Below, piece by piece: positions 755 to 63,693 of a stretch of DNA of 64,000 nt. The stretch covers positions 254,196-318,195 of the forward strand of contig JBLYPV010000001.1 in the NCBI GenBank assembly GCA_048538215.1. Direction: 5' to 3'. Below the pieces are notes generated by a model that was not told where the DNA came from, made no database searches, and saw nothing but the letters and a program-made list of their open reading frames with translations. Both the position numbers and the translations under genes were made by a program. The DNA is from Patescibacteria group bacterium. GTDB lineage: Bacteria; Patescibacteriota; Minisyncoccia; Phycocordibacterales; GCA-2747955. Position 1 is the stretch's first letter. Each line of letters starts with the position of its first letter.

Positions 755-1450
755 TTATAACCCTACAGCGTTAACTCCATACTCTGCCTGTGCTTGAGTG
801 TAACCCTCGAATTTAAGTTGATCTATTAGACCACCCCTCGAAAAAGCTGATTGGTCTAGATATGTTTCAGCTGATTTTGCAGCTTGCTCATTCCAGTTTG
901 CCCCAGAATTATCTGCTCCGTAAACAGCATCAGCATTTGAGAATTGTTCAAATTCTAGTTGTTCAATCAATCCCTCACGAGAGAAAGCCATATTATCTAG
1001 ATACGCTTTTGCACTTCTGACTGCGTTTCTTTGGCTCACCGTCTCACCTGGTTGAGAATTATTATTTGATTCATTAGCTTGTTGGGTTTCAGATGGTGTA
1101 GTTGACACCTGATTATCCTCTTGCTCATCTACTGTGTTTTCAACTACAGTTTCAGCATCAGATTCTTCTTGAGTATTATTACTCATTTCTGTATCATTTT
1201 CTTGCTCGGGTTGTTCAGATTGTTCTTGCTCGTTAGTGGCAACTTCATTCGTTTGATTAGATTCTTCGTTTTTATCTTCAGACACTGGCATCAGTATAAT
1301 TATCGCTAGTGATGCTATTCCAAAAATTGTTCCCACTCCTTTACGAGTAGCCCAATTGCCCAATAGTTTCGAGAATACGCTTGGCTTGATCAAGCCCACA
1401 ATTAATGCACCTAGTGATAATATGAATAAAAAAGCTAGTAAGTTCGCCAT
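755..1450 (-). CDS. Ltp-family (phage superinfection-exclusion lipoprotein-like) repeat protein with N-terminal TM helix and acidic low-complexity linker
   Basis: Two tandem C-terminal repeats (NAVRSAKAYLDNMAFSREGLIEQLEFEQFS / AAKSAETYLDQSAFSRGGLIDQLKFEGYT) matching the Ltp repeat consensus; N-terminal hydrophobic helix. Confidence 0.7.
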   Translation of the reverse strand: MANLLAFLFILSLGALIVGLIKPSVFSKLLGNWATRKGVGTIFGIASLAIIILMPVSEDKNEESNQTNEVATNEQEQSEQPEQENDTEMSNNTQEESDAETVVENTVDEQEDNQVSTTPSETQQANESNNNSQPGETVSQRNAVRSAKAYLDNMAFSREGLIEQLEFEQFSNADAVYGADNSGANWNEQAAKSAETYLDQSAFSRGGLIDQLKFEGYTQAQAEYGVNAVGL

Positions 1451-1675
1451 AATTTTGTTTTATTTATGATTAATAATCTAACTATACAGGTTCGCAACAC
1501 TTTTTTCAAAATTATCTCCCACCTGTACTCGTACTAGTTCAATACCTGCTTGCTCGCAAATACGTAGTTTTCTCTATTAGTTTTTGCATAAGTGCAATCT
1601 ATAATTCTTCTGATACACTAAAGTGAGAATAAGATTATATAAGGACACCAAATTTATAAAATTAATATAAAGTTT

Positions 1676-2152
1676 ATGTTTTCAAAAAAAATATCAGAGA
1701 AAGATTGTACCAATCAGATAGCCCAAGCTATAGTGGACATAGTAGACGAATCTGTTGAAGATGAATCACATCCATTATATGAAGTTGTTGACAGAAAGGG
1801 TCAATTACTACTATTACTTCATATGCATTACATGGCATTAAGGGCAACTCAACAAGAATATTTAATATCGGGTTTGTTTTCTCATGTTGTTAATATTGAA
1901 TATCAACCAGACAACAAAGAAAACGCAATTGAGCTGGTAGAAAAAGTGAACGAACAAATCGAAGAGCTATACGAGAACAGTTTTGATGACGACGACAGGC
2001 TCGACTTAGTACTTTTATCTACTAAATTTGCATTAGTACATGTTGATGACGATATAGTTTCACAAATGATTGTTCTCAATTATATAAATGGTGTATGTCC
2101 AGAAATATTTGAATCAATGGGAGAGATAAAAGCAAATGTAGAAATTGTATAG
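1676..2152 (+). CDS. hypothetical acidic protein (158 aa)
   Basis: Intact ORF; no recognisable family. Confidence 0.5.
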   Translation: MFSKKISEKDCTNQIAQAIVDIVDESVEDESHPLYEVVDRKGQLLLLLHMHYMALRATQQEYLISGLFSHVVNIEYQPDNKENAIELVEKVNEQIEELYENSFDDDDRLDLVLLSTKFALVHVDDDIVSQMIVLNYINGVCPEIFESMGEIKANVEIV

Positions 2153-2154
2153 TT

Positions 2155-2313
2155 ATGATTATTAATATACTAGTGGCAATAATAGTTGGAGTTATTCTAG
2201 GAATAACAGGGGCAAAAGGAGGTTGGGTGGTGTTCTTTATGCTTTTTTCGATACTTGTAGTAGGTCCTTTTATTAACTATTTAATAAAACACTGGAATGA
2301 CCCAACTATATAA
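2155..2313 (+). CDS. small hydrophobic membrane protein (52 aa)
   Basis: ATG overlaps stop of upstream gene (TAGTTATG); two predicted TM segments; not in ORF track (<60 aa). Confidence 0.4.
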   Translation: MIINILVAIIVGVILGITGAKGGWVVFFMLFSILVVGPFINYLIKHWNDPTI

Positions 2314-2322
2314 ATATATATT

Positions 2323-2475
2323 ATGAACGATTTACTTTTCATGCTACTTGGCATGCCGCTATTATTTGCTATTTATTGCTTGGTGCCAGAGAAGTATAGC
2401 GGAACTAGTTGGTTTGCAATTAGTTTTTGGATTTTCGGTTGCATTTTCTCAATAATTATTTTTGGAAGGGTATGA
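2323..2475 (+). CDS. small hydrophobic membrane protein (50 aa)
   Basis: Short ORF directly after previous one, strongly hydrophobic. Confidence 0.35.
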   Translation: MNDLLFMLLGMPLLFAIYCLVPEKYSGTSWFAISFWIFGCIFSIIIFGRV

Positions 2476-2490
2476 TTAGCATAATTTGTT

Positions 2491-3000
2491 TTACTTGCAA
2501 TTCAAAACATTACCCACTAGTACTTGTATTAGCTCAATCCCAGCTTGTTCGCAAATACGGTCTTTCTTGTTGTCGGAATCTTTTTGCTTGTCTCCGTTGT
2601 GTGAGTAGCCATCGAGTTCGATAGCTTTCACTACTTCTCCAGAGCTTTTATCTACGAGTACAAAATCAATATGCCGAGATCGAATGGAGTTTCGTTTTAC
2701 TCTTTTGGTCTGCCAATCAAGTGTTGGTTTCACCTGTACAATATCCTCCAGCCTCACTTTTGAGAATAAGTAGTATTTACCCTTATTTTGTTTTTCCAGT
2801 TCAGAAAAAAATATGTATTCTGACTTAGTAAAAAATTTACCACGAGCTTCGTAATAACTGACGAGTTGATCTTTTTGTTTCTGTTCTTTATTTGAATTTT
2901 TATTTACCAAAACAATTGTCGCAAGAATCAAAAGTAAAACTGGCACAACTGTTACAAGTAAAGCCAAGACAATCAAGAAAAAATTAGTGAGTGCTTCCAT
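2491..3000 (-). CDS. DUF2726-domain protein (PD-(D/E)xK nuclease-like) with N-terminal TM helix
   Basis: C-terminal motif RHIDFVLVDK...AIELDGYSH...RICEQAGIELIQV matches DUF2726 pattern; N-terminal hydrophobic segment. Confidence 0.6.
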   Translation of the reverse strand: MEALTNFFLIVLALLVTVVPVLLLILATIVLVNKNSNKEQKQKDQLVSYYEARGKFFTKSEYIFFSELEKQNKGKYYLFSKVRLEDIVQVKPTLDWQTKRVKRNSIRSRHIDFVLVDKSSGEVVKAIELDGYSHNGDKQKDSDNKKDRICEQAGIELIQVLVGNVLNCK

Positions 3001-3138
3001 GTATGTATATTATACTAGCATATAACATTTATATTCTTTGTATAGAAATATACATCAGTACAACGTCGGCTTAGACCCGACACGCAATGATTCACTCTAC
3101 CCAAATAAAAAGACAGCCTCTAGTGCCTGTTTTTTGTT

Positions 3139-29905: not shown

Positions 29906-30571
29906 TTATTCAATTAGAATGTCTACAAGCTCACTCTTCTGTCTATTATTTCGCTCTCTGTTGCGTGCCTCTATTGTTTCTCCCAATATATCTTGAGAAT
30001 ATGTATCGTATTGTTTACACGAACCTCCTATAAAACTCAAAGCTTCAGCGTGTAAAATATTTAACCCATTCATGGCTTGCCCATTTTTTAACTCTTGGAT
30101 GCTCGACTTAGGGACCGGGTCCCTAAGTTGGTGTACTAGATGATTTTGATGAACATACGCAAGTATTGATGTTAGATAATTTTCATTATCTATATGTTTC
30201 CTCTTAAACCTACCTTGGAACAATGATCCCGACCTATCATACTTAGCATTAAAATAAGCAGAATATCCCCCACCAACTGCTTTCATAAATTTTGATATTC
30301 CATCATCTACCCTTTGTCTTACAACTAAATGAAAATGATTAGGTAATAAATTGTACGCTAATATATCAACTACAGGATCTGATATTTGATTTATTTTATT
30401 AGCAAAGGAAATTGCATATAAACTTTGAATATTCTTTACTGAATTAAAATATTTTAAACCATCTAAAAAACGTAAGTAATCCCCTCTATCTTCAAAAATA
30501 ATCCTCTTGTCGGTTCCTCTATTATATATGTGATAAATCTCACCTGTTTTGCATAAGATATTCTTCCTCAT
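29906..30571 (-). mobile_element. REP-associated tyrosine transposase (RAYT; IS200/IS605-like HuH Y1 transposase)
   Basis: YHIYNRG N-terminal motif, HuH motif NHFHLVV, GRFKRKHIDNENYL...AYVHQNH catalytic-Tyr region; flanked by inverted REP palindromes. Confidence 0.8.
30106..30128. repeat. REP palindrome copy 3, embedded in-frame inside the RAYT coding sequence (encodes HQLRDPVPKS)
   Basis: ACTTAGGGACCGGGTCCCTAAGT identical to the intergenic copies. Confidence 0.8.
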
Positions 30572-30632: not shown

Positions 30633-31400
30633 TTATTGGGTAAGGATTTCTGGGCCAGCTTTGGTGACGAGGACTGTCTCTTCAAATTGAGCTGTGTTAC
30701 TCCCATCACGGGTACTAAATAGCCACCCATCACCATCTAGCTTGACGCGCCAATCACCTGCGGTAACAATAGGCTCAATAGCGAGCACCATTCCTTCCTT
30801 AATTTTATCTTTAAAGCCTGATTGGGCAAAATTGGGAATAAAAGGCAACATATGAATTTTTTTGCCCACCCCATGCCCTCCCAGCTCTCGTACTGTATTA
30901 AATCCATGTAATTGTGCAGTCTTTTCCGCTGCTTTGCCAATATCATCTACTGTATTGCCTACTTGGGCAGCACGAATAGCAGCGTCGGTTGTATCTCTCG
31001 CTGCCTTTATGAGGGCTTGATTCTCTTTCGATAGCTTGCCTGCTCCCCACGTACGACAGATATCGACAAATATTCCTTGATATTTCATTACTACATCTAC
31101 TGATACTACGTCACCCTCTTGTAGCACATACTGATTCTTGTAAGCGATACCATGCACTACCCCATCATTTATCGAAATACAGGCAGCTGATGGAAAAGGA
31201 TAGGGCGACTCGGGGATAGAATAGCCAATGGTGGCTGATTCACCGCCACAATCGGCTATAAGCTCGCGTACTTTCATTTCAATATCATGCACGCTAATGC
31301 CTGGCATAATGTACTCACCTAGTGTACGCATTAATTGAGCAAGGGCTTTTCCTCCTTCGCGTAAGCGTATAATTTCTTCTTTGGTGTAATATTCATTCAT
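30633..31400 (-). CDS. map: type I methionine aminopeptidase
   Basis: Pita-bread fold metal ligand pattern; position after adk in the ribosomal/secY operon. Confidence 0.9.
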   Translation of the reverse strand: MNEYYTKEEIIRLREGGKALAQLMRTLGEYIMPGISVHDIEMKVRELIADCGGESATIGYSIPESPYPFPSAACISINDGVVHGIAYKNQYVLQEGDVVSVDVVMKYQGIFVDICRTWGAGKLSKENQALIKAARDTTDAAIRAAQVGNTVDDIGKAAEKTAQLHGFNTVRELGGHGVGKKIHMLPFIPNFAQSGFKDKIKEGMVLAIEPIVTAGDWRVKLDGDGWLFSTRDGSNTAQFEETVLVTKAGPEILTQ

Positions 31401-31402
31401 AC

Positions 31403-32044
31403 TTATAGGCTAATTGCTTTTCGAATTGATTCTTCTACCTCTTCAATTGATTTCATTCCATCGATAATATGCACTGTATAATAATCACTATTAGTTTTGA
31501 AAAATTCGAGTGCTCGAATTGTCTCTTTTTCAAACCACTCGAGTCGATTACGAATAATATTTATATCATCGTCACTTCTCCCTCGCTCTTGCATTCGATC
31601 CAAAACAACTTTATCCTCTACGTCTAAATAGAGCACTATAGGATTTTCTACTTGATAAAATCGCAATGCTCCATCAAGCACCCGCGCTTGACGCTTGGTA
31701 CGTGGAGTACCATCAAAGATAAAATTTCGTTTGCCATTATGATACTTGATAAGCTCGGCTGCTAAAAAATAATTTGCTAAAAAATCTGGCTGTAATCCAC
31801 CTTCTTGTGCAATATTGTTTGCCTTCTCGGCAGTATAATTACTTTCTCGTAAAAAATTTCGAAATGATTCTCCCATTTCAATTTCATATACATCAGCTCC
31901 TCTTTCTCTCAATACCCTTGATATTAATTCAACCTGGGTACCCTTACCTGAGCCAGACTTACCCATTACAACAATTGCTTGATTTTCCATTGCAATATTG
32001 TAGCACGAGAGTAATAAATCATTGAATATTTTGTACATTAGCAC
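31403..32044 (-). CDS. adk: adenylate kinase
   Basis: P-loop VMGKSGSGKGTQ, LID/NMP domains, position after secY; true start probably MENQAIVV. Confidence 0.85.
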   Translation of the reverse strand: MLMYKIFNDLLLSCYNIAMENQAIVVMGKSGSGKGTQVELISRVLRERGADVYEIEMGESFRNFLRESNYTAEKANNIAQEGGLQPDFLANYFLAAELIKYHNGKRNFIFDGTPRTKRQARVLDGALRFYQVENPIVLYLDVEDKVVLDRMQERGRSDDDINIIRNRLEWFEKETIRALEFFKTNSDYYTVHIIDGMKSIEEVEESIRKAISL

Positions 32045-32175
32045 ATAATAGCCCGCGATTAGTTTACATCCTCAAAAATTACTCCAAATATTCTAAATTT
32101 GAATCTACAAAAAATAACAAGATACAATCTTGTTATTTTTTGTACTAAAGATGAGCTCACTATTGTGGCGTAATT

Positions 32176-33456
32176 TTAGTATTCACGCATCGTGATCTGT
32201 GCTTCTATTTTTTTAATCAAATCCGTCAATACTGATACTACAATCAAGACCCCAGTACCTCCAATGGCAAGCGCTTGGTATCCGGTAATCCCTTGGATAA
32301 TGATCGGCAAGACTGCTACTACTCCCAAGAAAAGAGCACCAAAGAGGGTAATCTTCGTCATTACATCACCTAGATATGCTTCTGTTTGTCCACCAGGGCG
32401 GATTCCAGGCACAAAGGCACCTGATTTTTGCAAGCGCTCTGCTACAGTAGATGGATCGAAAGTAACCGCCGTGTAGAAATAGGTAAAGAGTACTACTAAA
32501 ATAAAGTATATGATACCGTACCATAAGGTGTTTGAGAGAAAAGCATTGATGGATTGTGCAAGATCCTGTATAGCAACACTATCAGCAGATGCCATAAATC
32601 CAGCAACCATTTGTGGAAAAATCATCACTGAAAGAGCGAAAATGATTGGAATTACACCAGCTTGATTAAGACGAAGTGGCATATAGCTCTGGACCACCCC
32701 TGCCTGCTTCCCTGCCCGACTCGAACGAGTATACTGCACAGGCACTGGGCGCTCTGCCTCGGTAATAAATACAATAGCTGCAATCACTACTACCGCAACT
32801 ACCACAAAGGCCAAGACGACTGGGATCTGAGAAGAATCAATCAGCACATTTTGATAGAGATTCCAAGCAGCTCCTGGAAGAGATGAAATAATACCGGCAA
32901 AAATTACCAACGATACTCCATTCCCAATACCAAATTCACTGATGAGCTCTCCTATCCACATCAACAAGACAGAGCCTGCTACTACAATGATTAGATTGGT
33001 CAATAAATCAAAAGTAGAAAGCCCTGGTAATACCCCCTGTGATTCTAAAAGCTTGAGCAAGCCAAATCCTTGTACCGCTGCTAGTGGCACTGAGAGTAAA
33101 CGAGAATACATAGCTATTTTCATCCGCCCTATCTCTCCTTCTTGAGTCTGAATCTCTTTTATTCGTGGTGACATCATCGTCAAGAGCTGCATAATAATTG
33201 CGGCTGTAATATAGGGCCCTACTCCAAGCATTACAATCGACATAGTGGACAGCCCACCGCCTGAAAAAATATCCAAAAGACTCAAAAAACCCCCCGTAGA
33301 TGACTCCATCAAAGATTTAAGCTCGAGTGCATCCACTCCAGGAATAGGAATATTTGCAAGCATCCGAAAAACCACTAGTGCTCCAAGCACAAAAAGAATT
33401 TTATTGCGTAATGATGTATCGGTCCAAATGAGTTTAAGTTTTTGTGTGAGATTCAT
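32176..33456 (-). CDS. secY: preprotein translocase subunit SecY
   Basis: 10-TM SecY topology; position after uL15. Confidence 0.95.
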   Translation of the reverse strand: MNLTQKLKLIWTDTSLRNKILFVLGALVVFRMLANIPIPGVDALELKSLMESSTGGFLSLLDIFSGGGLSTMSIVMLGVGPYITAAIIMQLLTMMSPRIKEIQTQEGEIGRMKIAMYSRLLSVPLAAVQGFGLLKLLESQGVLPGLSTFDLLTNLIIVVAGSVLLMWIGELISEFGIGNGVSLVIFAGIISSLPGAAWNLYQNVLIDSSQIPVVLAFVVVAVVVIAAIVFITEAERPVPVQYTRSSRAGKQAGVVQSYMPLRLNQAGVIPIIFALSVMIFPQMVAGFMASADSVAIQDLAQSINAFLSNTLWYGIIYFILVVLFTYFYTAVTFDPSTVAERLQKSGAFVPGIRPGGQTEAYLGDVMTKITLFGALFLGVVAVLPIIIQGITGYQALAIGGTGVLIVVSVLTDLIKKIEAQITMREY

Positions 33457-33461
33457 ACACT

Positions 33462-33947
33462 TTATTTTACACTACCTCCTGCCTCTTCGATAGCTTGTTG
33501 GGCAGATTCTGAAATTTTACATCCATAGACCTTTACTGCTGTGGCAATATTTCCATTATTGAGAATTTTCACCTCTTGCCCACTTTTGGGTGTGCTAATA
33601 AGATTTTTACGCTGTAAACTTTTTGGGCTTACTACTTCTCCTGCACTAAAATGTGCATCAATCGTAGAGAGATCTACCACGAGAGCATTTTGTACTAAAT
33701 CTCGGGCGCGATTACCATGCACTCCGTGTCCACGAAGCTTAGGAAGCTTCTTAATAATATCTCGAATGGCTGGACGCTTTGAATTACCTTGGCGTGCATT
33801 TTGCCCCTTCATTCCGCGTCCAGCTGTTTTGCCCCGCTTCCCCCCGCGTCCTACACGCTTGGGTGATTGTGAGCTTTTTGATCTACTTAAATCATGTACT
33901 TGCATAAGCTTTAAATTAAGATACCACTGCTTACTTCTTGTACGCAA
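33462..33947 (-). CDS. rplO: 50S ribosomal protein uL15
   Basis: Gly/Arg-rich GRGGKRGKTAGRGMKGQ motif. Confidence 0.9.
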   Translation of the reverse strand: MRTRSKQWYLNLKLMQVHDLSRSKSSQSPKRVGRGGKRGKTAGRGMKGQNARQGNSKRPAIRDIIKKLPKLRGHGVHGNRARDLVQNALVVDLSTIDAHFSAGEVVSPKSLQRKNLISTPKSGQEVKILNNGNIATAVKVYGCKISESAQQAIEEAGGSVK

Positions 33948-34623
33948 ATGGCTTGAGGGCTTCTAATGTGGCCTTGGCATTGTTAATATTACTCTTGCTT
34001 CTGCTTAGTAATTTTCCTCCTACTTCATCAATACCTGCCATTTCAAGGACTACTCGTACGGCACCTCCAGCAGCAAGACCTTTACCCCACACTGGGCGTA
34101 AAAGGACTGCCGAGGCCTTGTATTTTGCCTGAGTATCATAGGGGATCGAATTATTCTCGGTACGCTTTATATGTACCATATCTTTTTTCGCCATACGCAC
34201 AGCTTTGTCAATCGCCATAGCGGTATCCCCCGCTTTGCCGATCCCAAAGCCGACGCGTCCTTTTTTATCACCAATAACAACAGCAGCGGAGAAAGAAAAT
34301 CGTCGTCCTCCTGCCATCACACGGGTCACCCGACGAAGTGAGATAATCTTTTGGTCAAATTCGCTCTTTTCTCGTCTAGGGCTTCGTCGTGGGCCACCTC
34401 TTCCTCGTCCACGAGCGGGGGCTCGAGATCGATCTCCACGCTCACTTCCTTTGGCACCATCGGAGCTAGTTGGGCTAGCATCCTTTGTGGTATCAACCTT
34501 CGAATCTTCTGTAGTCGGAGTCGCTTGCTTTGTTGCCTCTGGTGTTTGTACGGTAGTTTCAGTAGTATCTGGCGAAGCTCCGGTACCTTGTGTTTGTGTA
34601 TTGTTTTGTTCTTCTGTAGTCAT
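33931..34623 (-). CDS. rpsE: 30S ribosomal protein uS5 with about 70-aa T/P/S/E-rich N-terminal extension
   Basis: dsRBD and S5 C-terminal domain (VVIGDKKGRVGFGIGKA...); overlaps rplO start, so no rpmD between them. Confidence 0.9.
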   Translation of the reverse strand: MTTEEQNNTQTQGTGASPDTTETTVQTPEATKQATPTTEDSKVDTTKDASPTSSDGAKGSERGDRSRAPARGRGRGGPRRSPRREKSEFDQKIISLRRVTRVMAGGRRFSFSAAVVIGDKKGRVGFGIGKAGDTAMAIDKAVRMAKKDMVHIKRTENNSIPYDTQAKYKASAVLLRPVWGKGLAAGGAVRVVLEMAGIDEVGGKLLSRSKSNINNAKATLEALKPFAYKK

Positions 34624-34634
34624 AGTAGTATAAC

Positions 34635-34979
34635 TTAAAATACCAGCCCCCCTTCACGGGCACCATCTGCTAATGCTTTGATCCGGCCGGTATATAGATA
34701 CCCACCACGATCAAATACTACCTCGCTAATACTTGCTTGCTTTGCAAGCTCTGCAAGTTTCTTGCCTGCTTCAAAAGCTCGAGCCTGAAAGGTTTCACCC
34801 GAGCAATCCTTTGAGCTTACCGAAACAAGTGTGTGCCCGGCACTGTCATCAATGATCTGGGCACTAATATATCGATTAGATCGGTGAACGCACAGGCGAA
34901 GCTTGCTATCTTTGGTAGCAATAGCCCGGCGAACACGAGCGTGTCGACGAATTCTTTTTTGTTCTTTTAGTTGCGTCAT
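34635..34979 (-). CDS. rplR: 50S ribosomal protein uL18
   Basis: Conserved L18 sequence and operon position. Confidence 0.9.
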
Positions 34980-35067
34980 ATTTTTTTCTTAAAACATCTA
35001 TGTATCGTTCTTTTGCAATCCATTGTCTAGTCGTACGCGAAACTTCTCCAATAATAATCTATACACA

Positions 35068-35601
35068 TTAGACAGATTTCTTACCCTGCTTACGTGTAAT
35101 AATCTCTCCCTGGTAGCGAATACCCTTTCCTTTATATGGCTCAGGCTTTTTCTTGCTACGCACCCGATTGGCAAATAAGCCAACCAGCTCTTTATCAATT
35201 CCACTGATAGTAATGGTGTTTTTCTCCACCCCCACCTCAAGTCCTTCAGGAACAGTAATTTCTACTGGGTGTGAAAATCCGACATTGAGCACGAGCTTGT
35301 TGCCTTGCATATCACATCGATATCCTACCCCCTCTACTGAGAGCACCTTTTGAAATTTAGTATTCACTCCCTCTACCATACTGCGCACAATGCTTGAGAC
35401 AGTCCCCCACATTGCATGTGCAAAATGGCTATCTGTCTTAGGGGTAAATTGTACTGTATTGTCTACCACGATAATATCCACCACATCTCGAAAAGTGCGT
35501 GAAAGATTACCTAATGGTCCAGTGACCTTCACATTAGCTCCATCCACGGCTACCGTAGTACCTGCGGGAATTTCTATGATTTGTTTTCCAATTCGACTCA
35601 T
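35068..35601 (-). CDS. rplF: 50S ribosomal protein uL6
   Basis: Two-domain L6 and operon position. Confidence 0.9.
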   Translation of the reverse strand: MSRIGKQIIEIPAGTTVAVDGANVKVTGPLGNLSRTFRDVVDIIVVDNTVQFTPKTDSHFAHAMWGTVSSIVRSMVEGVNTKFQKVLSVEGVGYRCDMQGNKLVLNVGFSHPVEITVPEGLEVGVEKNTITISGIDKELVGLFANRVRSKKKPEPYKGKGIRYQGEIITRKQGKKSV

Positions 35602-35612
35602 ACTACTTTATA

Positions 35613-36011
35613 TTACCAAATGGTGAATAATGCTTCGCCACCAATATGCTTATCCCGAGCTTCTTTCTCGGTCATAATCCCTTCAGGGGTAGAGATAATC
35701 ATATGTCCATGTCCATATTTGACAGGGCGAATTTTTCGGTAGCCAAGATAGCTACGCTTTGATAGGCGTGATACTCGCTTGGCTTTTGTGATTGCTGATC
35801 GACCTTGCGCGTCATAACGCAAAACTATTTCAAAATCACGCCGAACTCCATCTCCTACTTCCTTAAAGTCGGTGATGTACCCTAGCTTTTTTAAAACTAA
35901 AAGGATTTGTTTTTTGAATTTTGATGCCGGAACTTCTACGCGAGTTTTGCCAACCATGCTCGCATTACTAATCCCGGTCAACATATCTGCTATTGGATCA
36001 TTCATATGCAA
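35613..36011 (-). CDS. rpsH: 30S ribosomal protein uS8
   Basis: Conserved S8 and operon position. Confidence 0.9.
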   Translation of the reverse strand: MHMNDPIADMLTGISNASMVGKTRVEVPASKFKKQILLVLKKLGYITDFKEVGDGVRRDFEIVLRYDAQGRSAITKAKRVSRLSKRSYLGYRKIRPVKYGHGHMIISTPEGIMTEKEARDKHIGGEALFTIW

Positions 36012-36017
36012 GTGATA

Positions 36018-36203
36018 TTACCAAGATGATTTTTGAACACCTGGAATCAAGCCTTGGTTGGCCATCTCACGGAAACAGATTCGGCAGAGACCAAAATCAC
36101 GCATATACCCGTGCTTGCGACCACATTTAAAACAGCGACGCACTTCACGAGTAGAGAATTTTGGCTTTTTTTCTGATCGAGCTATTACCGATTTTTTGGC
36201 CAT
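36018..36203 (-). CDS. rpsZ: 30S ribosomal protein uS14 (type Z, zinc-binding)
   Basis: 61 aa with CxxC...CxxC (CFKCG...CRIC). Confidence 0.9.
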
Positions 36204-36329: not shown

Positions 36330-36373
36330 GCTGAAAAGATGCGGCGCCTTCGGCGCCGCATCTTTATTCTCAC
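36330..36373. terminator. terminator hairpin (AAGATGCGGCGCC-TTCG-GCGCCGCATCTT)
   Basis: 13-bp GC stem plus T run downstream of pilin gene. Confidence 0.75.
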
Positions 36374-36385
36374 TATATAATATCT

Positions 36386-36440
36386 ACACTATAGATTCCT
36401 CTCAGGCAGTCCCTGCGGGACTGCCTGAGAGGAATCTAGA
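36386..36440. terminator. second, 21-bp perfect hairpin (TAGATTCCTCTCAGGCAGTCCC-TGC-GGGACTGCCTGAGAGGAATCTA)
   Basis: Perfect long dyad between pilin gene end and ribosomal operon start. Confidence 0.7.
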
Positions 36441-36454
36441 CCCTTTCCGAAATG

Positions 36455-37099
36455 CTAGTGGACGCAACGAACATAAAGGCCATTGCTCTTATCATTCCGG
36501 TACACACTGCCGTTATTGAGGTTCGTACGATATGCGTTCGTGGGCGCAGACGGCGACTCGACAGACGACCAGTAACTGCTCGCCGTAAAGCCTGCTGGTT
36601 TGGCGCTATCTATATCATATAGAGCTCGGAGCGCCGATGGTCCAGACAGGCGCTTGCCAGCACTCTGGCACGCACTGACTGCGCTCGACCAATTCTGCGT
36701 GCCACCAGTATCTGCATCATCAAAGGTGAAGACACCGGTAGGATCAACAGCATAGTAGGTTTCATTGAGAGTTGCAGCCACGCCAAAGTCGATAGTGGCT
36801 AATTCGGCGCGGTAATCACTATAGGTATCAGTAGAGATCCAACAGGCAGCCCCGTCGCTCTTCTCATCCAAGGCTGTTACCATAGTTTGTACGTGGCTAT
36901 CATTACAGAATCCTTCATAGGTTGAGTTGACACTATAGTAGACTGCTGCTTGGCGGTGGATGTTACTGAGAGATGAGCGGATACCAGCTTCTCTAGCATC
37001 CTCTCGTGCGCTGTTGAGTGAGGCCACGACTCCTAGTGAGAGAATACCAATGATAGCGATGACCACCAAGAGTTCGATGAGAGTAAATCCTTGCTTCAT
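36455..37099 (-). CDS. type IV pilin-like protein (prepilin-type N-terminal cleavage/methylation domain); ORF extends in-frame upstream to 37141
   Basis: MKQG|FTLIELLVVIAIIGIL class III signal peptide; alternative longer leader MTLVFCRGGGSIRNMKQG. Confidence 0.8.
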   Translation of the reverse strand: MKQGFTLIELLVVIAIIGILSLGVVASLNSAREDAREAGIRSSLSNIHRQAAVYYSVNSTYEGFCNDSHVQTMVTALDEKSDGAACWISTDTYSDYRAELATIDFGVAATLNETYYAVDPTGVFTFDDADTGGTQNWSSAVSACQSAGKRLSGPSALRALYDIDSAKPAGFTASSYWSSVESPSAPTNAYRTNLNNGSVYRNDKSNGLYVRCVH

Positions 37100-37112
37100 A
37101 TTCCTAATACTA

Positions 37113-37122
37113 CCCCCCCCCC
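37113..37122 (-). repeat. homopolymeric G10 tract (C10 on + strand) in the pilin leader/5' region
   Basis: Ten consecutive G on the coding strand, 14 nt upstream of the MKQG start and inside the in-frame upstream extension (codes GGG). Confidence 0.8.
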
Positions 37123-37313
37123 GGCAAAAAACAAGAGTCATTATCTACTTGTTTCCACAAATCCAAGCTCAAAACATTATAATAAAATACCAACCATAGT
37201 TTCTATTTTACTATTTTACATTTCTCCCCGAGGTATGAATTTTAAATATCTAACAAGCGCACCGGAAGGTGCGCTTGTTAGATGAAAATTGGTTCTTGAA
37301 AATTAAAAATTTA

Positions 37314-38378
37314 TTATGAATCCAGCCCACGCATCCCCAACCCAATTGCTACTGAAAATTCAGGGCCAGCATCACGCAAAGTATCTTCCAGAAAAGCAGG
37401 TGTATCTACCTTATTAAAGGGATGAGCGATGGACACCTCTGTCTCTAAAGACTCTACCACATAAGGCATTACTCCTTTCAAAATTGAGCCTCCTCCAGTA
37501 AGAATTACCTCTTCGATATTTTTACGATTTGATTTTTGATAGCTTAAGATAATCTTTTTTACTTCGGTAAGAATACGATCAAGGTCTACAGGAATCCGCT
37601 GAGATTCTTCGATTTGTCTTTGTAGCTCTTCTGCTTGAGCAATATTGAGATCTTCTCCAATAGCAGAAAGCTTGCGCTGGGTCTCAAGTGATTTAATCAT
37701 ATTTTGGCTTCCAACAGGAATTACCTGTGATTTTTGCACTATTCCGTACTCTATAATATAGATTTTGGTAATAGAGGCGCCAATATCAATAATAGCTGAG
37801 CTATTATTCTCATGACGCAAAACCGAACGAATAGTGGAGAAGGTCTCGATCTCGAGAAATTGCAGATCAAGCTTTGCTTGATCAGCTATCTCTTTAAATT
37901 TATTAAGAGTATCTTTATGAATAGCAACAACCATTATTGTTTGAAAATTATCTTTTTCTCCGTCATTATTAAGATTAGGAATTATCGACCAGTCCAAAGA
38001 TACTTCTGATACCGATACTGGAATATAGCGCCGAGCTTCCAAACGCACCATTTCATCTAATTTAGAATCAGACATCTTGGGCATTTTCATGTTAAAAACT
38101 AAAGATGATTTAAGTGGGATAGATAGACCAGCCGTGCGCGCATCGACCTGCGACTCACGCAGTAAATCTCGTAGTGCCTCTGCATATTGAGGGGTATCAA
38201 GACGCACAGAGTGCCCGATTTCTTTTCCAGCATATGGCCCTAAAGCAATTTCACCGAATGTATCAAGACTAATAACGCCCTTCTGACGAGAGAGTTGGAC
38301 GACTTTAATAGAAGAAGATCCTATATCAACGCCGACGAATTTATTAGAATGTGATCGCCTAAATAATGAACCGAACAT
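37314..38378 (-). CDS. pilM: type IV pilus assembly ATPase-like protein PilM
   Basis: Actin-like ASKHA fold motifs (FVGVDIGSSSIKVVQL...). Confidence 0.8.
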   Translation of the reverse strand: MFGSLFRRSHSNKFVGVDIGSSSIKVVQLSRQKGVISLDTFGEIALGPYAGKEIGHSVRLDTPQYAEALRDLLRESQVDARTAGLSIPLKSSLVFNMKMPKMSDSKLDEMVRLEARRYIPVSVSEVSLDWSIIPNLNNDGEKDNFQTIMVVAIHKDTLNKFKEIADQAKLDLQFLEIETFSTIRSVLRHENNSSAIIDIGASITKIYIIEYGIVQKSQVIPVGSQNMIKSLETQRKLSAIGEDLNIAQAEELQRQIEESQRIPVDLDRILTEVKKIILSYQKSNRKNIEEVILTGGGSILKGVMPYVVESLETEVSIAHPFNKVDTPAFLEDTLRDAGPEFSVAIGLGMRGLDS

Positions 38379-45801: not shown

Positions 45802-47646
45802 TTAATTTTTATCATTATTTTCAACATATCCGAGCTCTTTTGCGAGGCTCTCCAATTCTTTTTGTAGTTCTTTGATGCGACTTATGCTTGATTCCCAGAA
45901 AGATGCATCTCGTATATTAATTCCCACCTCACTAAATATTGCTTCTGTAGATTTGCTCGTACCTGCTCGCATAAATTGCTTTACCTGATCTATCGCTTTC
46001 GCGTCTTTTCGTACCATTTGCTGAAGTGCCATTGATATCATCTGACCAGAAGCATATGTATATACATAAAATGGTCGACGAAAATGTCCTACATACATCC
46101 ACCAATTTTCGCTCCCTGAGTCTTGAGACACCGCAGGGCCCATATATGATTTCATATGTTTTTGGAATAACGCACCAATTTCCGTATTTGATACATAGCC
46201 ATATTTCCGCGCTGTTGTATGTAAGTCTTGCTCAAAATTATAGAATGCTACCTGACGAAAAATTGTAGAAACAAGATCATCCATTTTTTGCATCATAATT
46301 ACTAAACGCTCTTTAGTAGTAGCTTCTTTTAGTAATTCCTCAAGGGTAAAATCTTCACAAAAAGTAGAGGCGACTTCCGCAGTAGCTAGTGTCGTGCCAC
46401 AGTATAATACTCCTTGGCTTGGGCGCATTAATTCATTATGTATACCATGCCCTGTCTCATGAGCAATCGTTTGCACATCACGTAGTCGATTACCATAATT
46501 AAGGAGAATATATGTTGGTGTGGTTTTAGAAGCACCAGCACAAAAAGCTCCATCAGCCTTAGCTTTTTTGGGATATACATCTATTCTCCCTTGTATGATA
46601 AATTTATCAAAATATCCTGCAAATTCTTTATCTAAATTTGTATATGCCTTAGATACTAATGCAACGGCCTCTTCGTAGCTAAACTTTTGGCTACTTGTGC
46701 CTATGCTCAAATTTCTTTCATGGTAGGCCAAACTATCTTGCTTTAGAATTCGTGCTTTTAATTTGTAATACTTGTGTACAATACTAAAATTTTTCCTGAC
46801 AACATCAATCATCGTATCTACTGTGCGTGAATCAATATCATCTGCAAGGTGTCGTGCCTGGTCTGGACGAGTATATCCTCGTTTATCATCAGTAATACGC
46901 TTACGCTCCAATACACTATTTATTTCTCGCTCAGTCACCGACGCTTGTCTACGCAAAATAGCATTAACGCCATCCGCTGCAGAATCACGTACTTTCTTTT
47001 TTGGATGACTTATATTGTTTAACAATATAGGCAAGGTACAAGCTTCTTTGATTAATTTTGTTTTGCCTTTTATTTCTATTTCATTCCAAGCTACCTCGGT
47101 ATCGTTTACAAGAAATTCTTCTTGCATATCAATCCAGTTGCCTTCAGATACTCCCGATAACAAGGTGAGGAGATTCTCTTCTTTTTGAGAAAGATTGTAT
47201 TGTGCTCTATCAAAAATACTTTTGAGATAAAAGTGGTATGCCTGCAAATTCTTGCTCGCTAAAAATTTTTTTTGTGTGGCTTTGTCTATTTGTGCCAACG
47301 ATAGTTCAAAAAATGACAAGGCATTGGATAGAGGTATATAAAATTCTTCATATTTTTTTAAAGCTCGCTTGATAGAAATATCAGCAGAATTAAGCGCCTG
47401 CCGTAATTGTAGATAGTAGCCTTCATTGCCAGGATACTCTAAAATATTTGTATACTCTTCTAAGGCTTGTTTCAATCGTGATACTCGAGATAGATAGCTC
47501 TTGTCTTTACTCCATGTATTTACAAAATCTGTAATTATTTTCTTAATTTTTGCTCGCTCCTTAGTAAATTGTGGATCATCAATCTTCTTACCAAGAATAG
47601 ACATATCCCATTCGGTAGCTAATTTTCGCTTTGACATATCCTGCAT
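45802..47646 (-). CDS. pepF: oligoendopeptidase F (M3B family)
   Basis: HETGHGIHNELM zinc motif; 614 aa. Confidence 0.85.
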   Translation of the reverse strand: MQDMSKRKLATEWDMSILGKKIDDPQFTKERAKIKKIITDFVNTWSKDKSYLSRVSRLKQALEEYTNILEYPGNEGYYLQLRQALNSADISIKRALKKYEEFYIPLSNALSFFELSLAQIDKATQKKFLASKNLQAYHFYLKSIFDRAQYNLSQKEENLLTLLSGVSEGNWIDMQEEFLVNDTEVAWNEIEIKGKTKLIKEACTLPILLNNISHPKKKVRDSAADGVNAILRRQASVTEREINSVLERKRITDDKRGYTRPDQARHLADDIDSRTVDTMIDVVRKNFSIVHKYYKLKARILKQDSLAYHERNLSIGTSSQKFSYEEAVALVSKAYTNLDKEFAGYFDKFIIQGRIDVYPKKAKADGAFCAGASKTTPTYILLNYGNRLRDVQTIAHETGHGIHNELMRPSQGVLYCGTTLATAEVASTFCEDFTLEELLKEATTKERLVIMMQKMDDLVSTIFRQVAFYNFEQDLHTTARKYGYVSNTEIGALFQKHMKSYMGPAVSQDSGSENWWMYVGHFRRPFYVYTYASGQMISMALQQMVRKDAKAIDQVKQFMRAGTSKSTEAIFSEVGINIRDASFWESSISRIKELQKELESLAKELGYVENNDKN

Positions 47647-47919: not shown

Positions 47920-48525
47920 CTATCCCATACGCTCGGCCACTTTCCCCCAATCTATAATTTGCCAATGAGCATCCAGATACTGAGCTCGCTGATTTTGGTA
48001 TTTCAAATAGTAGGCGTGCTCCCATACATCAATCCCCAAGAGAGGGGTGAATGCTCCCTCTTGTTCTCGTACTACATCCATCAAAGGATTATCTTGATTG
48101 GCAGTAGAAAAAATCTTGAGCTCTCCAGATGAAGCATAGCCAAGCCATGCCCAACCTGAGCCAAATCTTCCCAAAGCTACTTGAGTAAACTTTTCCTTAA
48201 ATGCATCTATTGAACCAAAAGTTTCTGTAATGCGTGTTTCTAATTTGCTCGGCATTTCGCTAGCTTGAGGAGTGAGCGATTCCCAAAAAAATGAGTGGTT
48301 GTAGTGCCCTCCTGCATTATTACGAATTCCTACAGGATAGGCAGAGATATTGGCAAGCAATTTTTCCATACCAATATCTACCACTGAGTGTTCCTCTAGT
48401 AATCTATTAAGATTATCAATATATCCCTGGTGATGTTTACTATGATGAATTTCCATCGTGCGTGCATCAATTGCTGGCTCGAGGGCATCGTAGGCATATG
48501 TTAATTCCGGCAGTGTGTACTTCAT
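47920..48525 (-). CDS. sodA: Fe/Mn superoxide dismutase
   Basis: MKYTLPELTYAYDALEPAIDARTMEIHHSKHHQGY N-terminus, DVWEHAYYL motif. Confidence 0.9.
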   Translation of the reverse strand: MKYTLPELTYAYDALEPAIDARTMEIHHSKHHQGYIDNLNRLLEEHSVVDIGMEKLLANISAYPVGIRNNAGGHYNHSFFWESLTPQASEMPSKLETRITETFGSIDAFKEKFTQVALGRFGSGWAWLGYASSGELKIFSTANQDNPLMDVVREQEGAFTPLLGIDVWEHAYYLKYQNQRAQYLDAHWQIIDWGKVAERMG

Positions 48526-61697: not shown

Positions 61698-63272
61698 ATG
61701 AAAGAAAAATTCTTTTTGTACGCTCGCAAGTCCACTGATGTCGAGGATAAGCAGGTGATGTCAATTGATGCTCAGTTGGTGGAATTGCGTACATTTGCCC
61801 GTGAGCAAGGGCTAGAGATTGTTGAAGAGTTTGTCGAAAAACAGTCAGCCAAAAAGCTAGGCCGTCCTATCTTTGGGCAAATGCTCTCGCGCATCGAGCA
61901 AGGTGAAGCGTCCGGTATAGTCTCCTGGGCGCCAGACCGTTTAGCTCGTAACTCCGTTGACGGTGGGCAGATTATCCACCTCCTCGACACGTGTGTTCTT
62001 GCGAGTCTCAAGTTCCCGACCTTTTGGTGTGACAACACTTCACAAGGAAAGTTTATGTTGAGCATGGCGTTCGGGCAAAGCAAATACTATGTTGATTCTC
62101 TTTCCGAGAATACGAAACGTGGGCTCAGGCAAAAAGTCCGCTTGGGGCATTGTCCAAGCAAAGCTCCAATCGGATATATCAATGACGTTCGGACTAAAAC
62201 CATCGTTCCAGACAAGAAGCGTGCTCCGATTATTAAAAGAGTGTTTGAGTTATACGCAGTTGGAGACATGCGGCTAGAAGATGTGGCGGACTTTTTCGCC
62301 CAGCACCACGTTACCACCCGTACCGGCAAGAGAATCTCCAAGACTAGAGCGTCTTTTATCCTCTCCAATCCTTTTTATGTTGGATTGTTTAAGTACGGCG
62401 GCGAAGTATATGAAGGCAAGCATGAGCCAATCATCGCAAAGCCACTGTTTGATGAAGCGCAGGCGGTACTCAAAAAGAGAGGTCAGCCAGACCGCAAACC
62501 CAAGAATGAACCGCAACCATACTGCGGACTAATAACCTGCGCTTCCTGCGGGATGATGATAACGGCCGAGAACAAAACGAAGCGACAGAAGAATGGAAAT
62601 ACACACCACTACGTGTATTATCGCTGTACCAAGAAACACAAGAATATTCATTGCCAAGAGAAGTCGCTTCGTTCTGAAGTTCTCGACTCCCAGTTATCAT
62701 CCCTTATCAAAGCAGTGGCTTTGCCCACCGACTGGGCAACCAAACTCAATCAAATGGCTAAAGATGAACACGCACAGTCTAGCCAGTCGGTGTCACAGCT
62801 CGTGAAAGAGAGGCGGCAAGAAATACAAAACAATACTATTAAACTAGACCGCCTTTTAACTGGATATCTAGAGCAAGTTATAGACGAGTTAGATTATCGA
62901 AAAGAAAAAGCCAAGTTACTATCCGAAAAGAAGAGTCTGGAGTCTGAAATAGCTTCTCTTTCACACGCTGTGAATGATTGGCTCGCACCTTTCCAAGACT
63001 GGCTAAAAGACGCTCAGAACTTGGACGAAATCGCTTCTGATTGCAACCTTTTTACGAGAAAGGTTGCCGCCAAAGAAATCTTTGGCTCGCACCTCCGCCT
63101 CAGCGGCCGTCGCGTGGTTGTCTCGTCCTCGGTTGGTGGCTCCACAGAGCCGCCAACGGCATGGGCGGCGCTACGCGCCGCCCATGCCAAAGTTGGTTTA
63201 GAACCCGAAAGTTCTATTCTGGTGCCCAGGGCGGGAATCGAACCCGCACCGCCATTGGCGACAAGATTTTAA
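61698..63272 (+). mobile_element. large serine recombinase (resolvase catalytic domain, recombinase domain, zinc ribbon, coiled-coil); reading frame runs into IR-B' and tRNA-Leu
   Basis: YARKSTD catalytic-Ser region, CGLITCASCG...YYRCTKKHKNIHC zinc ribbon, C-terminal coiled-coil; last about 60 codons lie inside the inverted repeat. Confidence 0.85.
63087..63224. repeat. IR-B': right arm of 138-bp inverted repeat, ending at the 3' CCA end of tRNA-Leu
   Basis: See IR-B. Confidence 0.9.
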
Positions 63273-63305
63273 GTCTTGCGTGTCTACCAATTCCACCACC
63301 TGGGC
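63220..63305 (-). tRNA. tRNA-Leu (anticodon UAA) with genomically encoded CCA
   Basis: GCCCAGGTGGTGGAATTGGTAGACAC..CTTAAAA..long variable arm..GGTTCGATTCC..CCTGGGCACCA. Confidence 0.85.
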
Positions 63306-63329
63306 ATATTATATTGTTGAAAGTATAGA

Positions 63330-63400
63330 AGCGGGAATCGAACTCGCTCGTGGCGGCAATCTGTGGAATCAGACAGACCGCTGTGGTCTGCAAATATCTC
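63330..63400 (-). pseudogene. degenerate tRNA-Cys 3' fragment (pseudo-tRNA)
   Basis: About 30-nt segment CCGCCACGAGCGAGTTCGATTCCCGC nearly identical to the T-arm region of the adjacent tRNA-Cys, but no intact acceptor stem. Confidence 0.6.
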
Positions 63401-63423
63401 CCTCGTCGAAAAATAGTTGCAGG

Positions 63424-63495
63424 AGGCGTAGGCGGGAATCGAACCCGCTCGTGGCGGTTTTGCAGACCGCAGTGTTCCCACTTCACCACTACGCC
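63424..63495 (-). tRNA. tRNA-Cys (anticodon GCA)
   Basis: GGCGTAG acceptor, short D-stem, anticodon loop CTGCAAA, GGTTCGATTCC T-arm, U73 discriminator typical of Cys. Confidence 0.8.
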
Positions 63496-63620
63496 ATAGG
63501 ATGAACACTCTCGTGTTCGTTTCGGGATTATACCAGAAATATCCAGAAATCGTACAGCTTTAATTAATCACATTTTTTGCTATAATCCTGGTGCGTTTGA
63601 TATCGACGCAATCAAACTAT

Positions 63621-63693
63621 CCCCTTGTAGCTCAGTTGGTAGAGCAGCAGCCTCTTAAGCTGACGGTCCTAGGTTCGAATCCTAGCGGGGGGA
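63621..63693 (+). tRNA. tRNA-Lys (anticodon CUU)
   Basis: TAGCTCAGTTGGTAGAGC D-arm, anticodon loop CTCTTAA, GGTTCGAATCC T-arm; acceptor stem has two G-U pairs. Confidence 0.7.

Follow-up and report, generated by a model that had tools for sequence, protein, structure and literature searches.

Phase variation by a homopolymer in the promoter spacer is known from the poly-G tract of porA and the poly-C tract of opc in Neisseria meningitidis, where slippage alters transcription and not the reading frame. The poly-C tracts of fim2 and fim3 in Bordetella pertussis and the poly-A tract of vlp in Mycoplasma hyorhinis are likewise promoter-spacer homopolymers that cause phase variation. In Neisseria pilC, a pilus gene is switched by slippage in an intragenic G tract. 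The same type of intragenic G-tract slippage switch has been described for the sortase-dependent pili of Bifidobacterium breve (PMC9187656). From the Candidate Phyla Radiation (CPR), we found no report in the literature of phase variation by homopolymers. Bacteria of the CPR (Patescibacteria) are believed to live on other cells, and among their means of attachment type IV pili have, to our knowledge, the best support, with experimental proof only in Saccharibacteria.

Here we describe a run of ten G (G10) on the coding strand upstream of a type IV pilin gene, found in a 64-kb window (the whole stretch of DNA that was analysed). An earlier note on this DNA had proposed a phase-variation switch acting through the reading frame of the pilin leader, following the logic of the intragenic G tracts of B. 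breve pili and Neisseria pilC. Our analysis partly supports that interpretation, i.e., the tract remains a candidate switch, by way of promoter geometry and not of the leader frame.

The pilin gene, its lineage and its setting

The N-terminus of the pilin, MKQG|FTLIELLVVIAIIGIL, matches PF07963 at 36.4 bits (cut-off 21.2) and displays the features of a class III signal peptide, namely a short basic leader, G at −1, F at +1, E at +5 and a hydrophobic helix; its C-terminus is an Lcl_C/DUF1566 domain. The identical protein at NCBI (MFW0871135.1) is the 214-aa short form, encoded on a 622,806-bp contig of a MAG named 'Patescibacteria group bacterium'. The closest named relatives of the SecY encoded in the window are from Candidatus Paceibacterota/Parcubacteria (~60% identity), and the host therefore belongs to the CPR and not to the Saccharibacteria. 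The CPR host assumed in the earlier note thus agrees with both the SecY relatives and the NCBI name. Pilus-mediated host attachment, which the note also took for granted, is established in Saccharibacteria and not in this lineage, so that such a role for the type IV pili of this organism is an extrapolation.

Table 1 Features of the pilin locus (positions are those of the window).
Feature	Position	Strand	Remarks
14-bp GC-rich hairpin, then TTTT	36335..36365	minus	likely terminator of the pilin unit
22-bp perfect hairpin	36392..36438	minus	17 nt past the pilin stop; of a type found beside DGR targets
Type IV pilin gene	36455..37099	minus	stop codon included; 214 aa; MKQG|FTLIELL class III signal peptide
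Probable DGR variable region	36455..36600	minus	3′ end of the pilin gene
In-frame 14-codon upstream extension	37100..37141	minus	MTLVFCRGGGSIRN; ATG at 37141..37139; judged untranslated
Putative −10 hexamer TAGTAT	37107..37112	minus	abuts G10; 7 nt before the pilin ATG
G10 homopolymer	37122..37113	minus (coding)	C10 at 37113-37122 on the plus strand
−35-like hexamer TTGTTT	37129..37134	minus	TTGATT in L001 and L163
TATAAT of the earlier note	37181..37176	minus	in an arm of the AT-rich palindrome 37179-37214
16-bp perfect hairpin, terminator-like	37248..37283	minus	after pilM; upstream boundary of the pilin unit
pilM (PF11104)	37314..38378	minus	upstream neighbour of the pilin gene; synteny also in L163

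Hairpins on both sides of the pilin gene mark it as a self-contained unit, and its promoter must therefore lie within 37100-37247; past the downstream hairpins, rpsN (S14) has a −10 box of its own. The pilM-pilin pair stands directly upstream of a truncated spc-type ribosomal cluster on the minus strand (36018-36203 and 30633-36011; S14, S8, L6, L18, S5, L15, SecY, Adk and Map). At the orthologous locus L001 the pilin gene is inserted between secY and adk instead, and the gene therefore moves around the ribosomal/secY cluster. Elsewhere in the window there are an IS200-like Y1 transposase (29906-30571, minus strand) and a large serine recombinase with Resolvase, Recombinase and Zn-ribbon domains (61698-63272, plus strand), which adjoins a group of tRNA genes (63223-63693) and together with them may be the mark of an integrated element. 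An Rfam scan of the window returned six tRNAs only and no RNA family near the G10 tract.

Judging from its 3′ end, the pilin looks like a variable protein targeted by a diversity-generating retroelement (DGR). Its last 146 nt and the bases past the stop share ~85–90% DNA identity with the VR and TR of the DGR at an orthologous locus (L162), where a complete cassette spans 1434-3074 (pilin VR 1434-1579, bAvd, TR 2241-2386 and reverse transcriptase) and 13 of the 15 TR-to-VR mismatches fall at TR adenines. In addition, a paralogue encoded on the same contig as the window pilin (P0121, MFW0871183.1, 48 accession numbers away) is 96% identical to it, and all nine differences lie in residues 175-207. 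The window pilin resembles DGR variable proteins with a C-terminal CLec/DUF1566 fold in its Lcl_C/DUF1566 end and in the hairpin after its stop codon, but in contrast to the full set at L162 it has no TR, reverse transcriptase or Avd nearby. Since neither a TR (a repeat of the pilin 3′ end) nor an RT occurs within the 64-kb window, the cognate DGR cassette, if real, would lie on another part of the 622-kb contig. Pilins have been described as a scarce type of DGR target (PMC11661182).

The G10 tract reported upstream of the MKQG|FTLIELL start is present in the sequence, separated from the pilin ATG (37099..37097) by 13 nt (TAGTATTAGGAAT) and not by the 14 nt given earlier. It is the sole G/C run of at least 9 nt in the window (G+C 41.9%), for which a first-order Markov model of the window predicts 0.026 runs of at least 10 nt per 64 kb; for a genome of 0.6–1 Mb, ~0.25–0.4 such runs are expected by chance. 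No G/C run of at least 9 nt was found among 168 other pilin loci (722 kb searched). Runs of at least 7 nt upstream of pilins were ~2.8-fold enriched across these 168 loci, which is not significant because the runs number only four, of which one element contributes two. The next-longest G/C run in the window is a single C8 (47695-47702; G8 on the minus strand). It falls in the intergenic space that separates sodA (47920-48525) from the gene of an M3 oligopeptidase (45802-47646), whose probable start is the second ATG (MSKRK), and it lies ~50 nt upstream of the TGATACAAT box of the oligopeptidase gene, with no evident role there.

The pilin promoter and the start sites of the window

The survey of start sites covered 65 ORFs of the window, each of 90 codons or more and none overlapping another. 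The starts of conserved genes are reliable because their Pfam alignments begin close to the N-terminus, for example in uvrA and, at residues 2-13, in ddl, recG, hisS and secA. None of the SD cores GGAG, GAGG and AGGA was found within 10 nt of the start (0/65 ORFs); at the pilin gene, an AGGA stands 2 nt before the ATG, and the other genes of the window have no SD core at 10 nt or less from the start. A −10-to-ATG pattern runs through the gene set instead: TAnnnT ends 6–9 nt before the start codon in 32/65 ORFs, and the extended form TGnTAnnnT peaks at 6–9 nt from the start (13 genes, with five more at 11–13 nt). When the promoters are aligned on the −10 box, T is found at −15 in 26/38 and G at −14 in 19/38, and this alignment contains no recognisable −35 signal. 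The ddl promoter, TGCTAGTAT, lies 6 nt before the ATG and has the same hexamer as the pilin gene, TAGTAT; that of recG, TGCTACAAT, is also found 6 nt before the ATG.

Because the SD signal is absent and −10 boxes are situated 6–9 nt from the starts, the mRNAs of the window genes look mostly leaderless or near-leaderless. They share the −10 element 6–9 nt from the ATG and the absence of an SD with the leaderless genes of Actinobacteria, Deinococcus-Thermus and Mycobacterium tuberculosis, from which they differ in their Parcubacteria-like host and in being recognised by sequence alone. We found no report of leaderless translation in CPR in the literature. The SD-less pattern agrees with the reported loss of the anti-SD motif of the 16S rRNA in a subgroup of Parcubacteria (PMC9297842). 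In this lineage, features just 5′ of an ATG would therefore belong to the promoter and not to a 5′ UTR or a leader peptide.

A −10 profile of 12 columns, trained on 32 further promoters in the window, scores the pilin site GGGGGGTAGTAT at 7.76 bits, i.e., within the top 0.1% of window positions, and this is the only strong profile site at the modal distance of d = 7. With TAGTAT at that distance, the pilin gene has the sequence features of a leaderless gene (a −10 element 5–10 nt from the start and no SD). The −35-like hexamer TTGTTT matches the TTGACA consensus at 3/6 positions, and just upstream of its TTG lies a conserved AAGT(A/G)GA box (37150-37144). A sigma-54 promoter was rejected by eye, as no GG is found 10–11 nt upstream of TTGC.

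A G-rich element this close to a start codon might also be read as an SD mimic, in which the run would be part of a 5′ UTR and GGGGG would pair with CCUCC via one G-U, as the counterpart of the GAGGG that two orthologous loci, L001 and L163, have at the same position. An unrelated pilin locus of 49% G+C (L075) has a G7 at 2186-2192, 10 nt upstream of its ATG (MHQKQGFTLIELL); this run could be an SD-like element at that locus and to that extent favours the same reading here. However, the G10 tract is 13–14 nt from the ATG, which exceeds the usual spacing of an SD, the more distant orthologues lack any G-rich element, and the anti-SD motif is missing from a subgroup of Parcubacteria (PMC9297842). 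The overlong spacing together with the zero count of SD cores near the starts of window genes led us to reject this very improbable explanation.

Orthologous pilin loci and the upstream reading frame

We compared the window with seven orthologous pilin loci, whose proteins are 76% (L001), 72% (L162), 67% (L163, with pilM upstream), 62% (L164 and L165), and 59–62% and 48% (L166, L167 and L168) identical to the window pilin. Between about −60 and the ATG, the window can be aligned gap-free with L001 and L163, and the three have a common architecture, TTGnTT-N16-GGGTAGTAT-N7/8-ATG, within which CTTG.TTT and GGGTAGTAT are invariant. All three have a spacer of 16 nt from TTGnTT to TAGTAT, but the sequence (TTTGCCGGGGGGGGGG in the window, TCTGCTTTACTGAGGG in L001 and TAATCTAGCGAGAGGG in L163) is only ~50% identical; G10 aligns gap-free to TTACTGAGGG in L001 and AGCGAGAGGG in L163. 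This conserved promoter architecture therefore indicates that G10 fills the 3′ ten bases (about −13 to −22) of a putative 16-bp spacer, TTTGCC + G10. The three more distant lineages have a consensus TGnTATAAT or TATACT 6–9 nt before the ATG and no SD: TGATATAAT followed by 9 nt and the ATG in L162, TGCTATACT and 6 nt in L164/165, and TGATATAAT and 6 nt in L166-168. Given these extended −10 boxes beside the ATG, transcription of the family as a whole would come from a promoter directly adjoining the start codon.

The exact spacing also bears on the quality of the sequence itself. Several sequencing platforms are prone to errors in the length of homopolymers, and the MAG offers a single contig, so that the length of the tract might have been miscalled or poly-G noise built into the assembly. 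Yet G10 lies in mid-contig between conserved flanks, and poly-G artefacts of two-colour chemistry occur at read ends and not inside well-covered contigs. Because the ten G restore the orthologous 16-nt spacing exactly, we consider an artefact hardly credible.

A second lineage has a G:C run in the same promoter. In L166, the −35 position is taken up by a C8 (1462-1469), 19 nt upstream of TGATATAAT, with the same element in L167, and L168 has C7 plus a substitution at equal total length. A G:C run therefore recurs in promoters of this pilin family. The recurrence is suggestive, with a post hoc p of only ~0.01–0.06, depending on the background. No indels were found in the C run among L166, L167 and L168; their differences are point mutation under a length constraint and not slippage. 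For the window pilin, scans of metagenome, genome and viral contig collections with its protein yielded no conspecific or orthologous DNA; the metagenome and genome contigs contained distant pilins only, with the common MKQGFTLI N-terminus. Protein look-ups gave no exact match to the long or short pilin, PilM, P0001 or the paralogue P0121, and the window pilin protein is recorded on one contig only.

The frame-based switch of the earlier note depends on the reading frame upstream of the pilin start. The in-frame upstream ATG and its extension exist as described, and translation from this ATG through the pilin start reads MTLVFCRGGGSIRNMKQG. When we rebuilt the tract in silico at lengths of 7–13, the upstream ATG was in frame with the pilin at G7, G10 and G13, whereas the upstream frame ended at a TGA overlapping the pilin ATG at G9 and G12, and at a TAG at G8 and G11. 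The frame arithmetic of the note was thus correct. Changes in tract length leave the pilin ORF itself intact; G9 or G11 would yield a spacer of 15 or 17 nt.

According to the leader model, a transcript from an upstream promoter would include G10, and its AUG at 37141 would give an 18-residue leader fused to the pilin, whereas G9 or G11 would produce a short uORF ending at or before the pilin AUG and altering translation. The prepilin peptidase would cut long and short precursors to the same mature pilin, which favours this model. There are, moreover, −10-like sites further upstream, with one match reaching 8.27 bits (37210..37205), so that a leadered transcript containing G10 is possible. These upstream matches form part of the arms of an AT-rich palindrome (37179-37214, 81% complementary), a near-perfect 16-bp version of which is found at ~1885-1920 in L001 and which could serve as an operator or else as a second terminator. 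The TATAAT to which the earlier note drew attention is also there, but it reaches only 3.06 bits as a promoter, compared with 7.76 bits for the TAGTAT site.

Against the leader model, not one of the seven orthologous loci contains the 14-codon extension with its upstream ATG, and their leaders are hydrophilic and 4–10 residues long; L001 alone has an ATG three codons upstream of the pilin start, overlapping the −10 hexamer. The N_methyl motif begins at the MKQG start and the NCBI entry uses the short form, while the upstream ATG has neither an SD nor, by the promoter profile of the window, a −10-like site to serve it. GGGTAGTAT, on the other hand, is conserved precisely where the −10 boxes of this genome typically sit. 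The RNA structure of the hypothetical leader is not significant (z = −1.0; consensus −3 kcal/mol with one compensatory pair). The long leader or coupled uORF as the basis of a switch is not supported by this evidence, and we regard the model as distinctly unlikely.

A candidate promoter-spacer switch and its known counterparts

The reading that we prefer, to which we give an even chance, is that G10 forms an untranscribed part of the core-promoter spacer, in which slippage would tune or switch pilin transcription via promoter geometry. The promoter would consist of TTGTTT (37134..37129), the 16-bp spacer TTTGCC+G10, TAGTAT (37112..37107), 7 nt and the ATG (37099), and we infer that transcription would start at or a few nucleotides from the AUG and yield a leaderless pilin mRNA, as predicted for most genes here. 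The tract extends a conserved GGG abutting the −10 box, with G at 10/16 spacer positions, and since ten G give exactly the orthologous spacer length, G10 would represent the native or 'ON' geometry. A run of ten G:C pairs is by its nature liable to slip during replication. One G more or less would make the spacer 17 or 15 bp long, rotating and shifting the −35-like TTG and the AAGT(A/G)GA box relative to the −10 box. The changed spacing might then tune or switch transcription of a surface pilin with an apparently DGR-diversified C-terminal domain. A surface pilin with a DGR-type variable end is a typical setting for a contingency locus. The homopolymer expected at such loci (~7–8 nt or more, in the promoter or the 5′ coding region) is present here with ten nucleotides, and a type IV pilin with an Lcl_C/DUF1566 domain is a product of the surface or adhesin type.

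The main rival is a fixed promoter spacer without a switching role, which we hold to be possible, if somewhat doubtful. The G run would in this case be an inert −35/−10 interval that arose by few substitutions in a G/A-rich spacer, with GAGAGGG in the relatives, and slippage variants would be rare, deleterious or neutral, and unused. The conservation of exactly 16 nt fits a fixed promoter equally well, and the C-run lineage L166-168 keeps its total length by substitution. Spacer length may even be of little importance because the promoters of the window reveal no general −35 signal, i.e., no general dependence on this element. Chance alone is expected to provide ~0.25–0.4 such runs per genome, and the G8 upstream of a housekeeping peptidase gene indicates that long intergenic G runs occur without an adhesin context. 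However, G/C runs of at least 9 nt are absent from all the comparison loci; long G/C runs are generally avoided as unstable, so that a G10 retained within the 40 bp of a core promoter of a surface-protein gene is probably not inert.

More far-reaching is the proposition of an SD-less, leaderless Parcubacterium pilin equipped with two independent devices of diversification, a stochastic G10 promoter switch and a DGR-rewritten lectin-fold domain, which as a whole we rate as rather unlikely. If true, no earlier contingency locus would be on record for the Candidate Phyla Radiation, and the C8 in the pilin promoter of L166/L167 hints that such a locus could be recurrent. Should tract length vary, bacteria with minimal genomes would hedge pilin expression by the logic of contingency loci, on top of DGR hypervariation, and in metagenomes the reads across the tract would serve as a simple marker of ON/OFF states. 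If real, the switch would be of a known kind in a lineage without a described case.

Among the described systems, the pili of B. breve and Neisseria pilC resemble this locus in having a G tract of ~10 tied to a pilus gene. In these, however, the tract lies inside the CDS and sets the frame, whereas here only a non-conserved 14-codon extension is affected. The closer counterparts are the promoter-spacer switches of porA, opc, fim2/fim3 and vlp, with which the pilin locus has in common a long homopolymer between the −35 and −10 elements of a surface-protein gene. It differs from them in its weak −35 element, in promoters that look like the extended −10 type and in a predicted leaderless mRNA, and its tract is known at one length, from one contig of a Parcubacteria-like member of the CPR.
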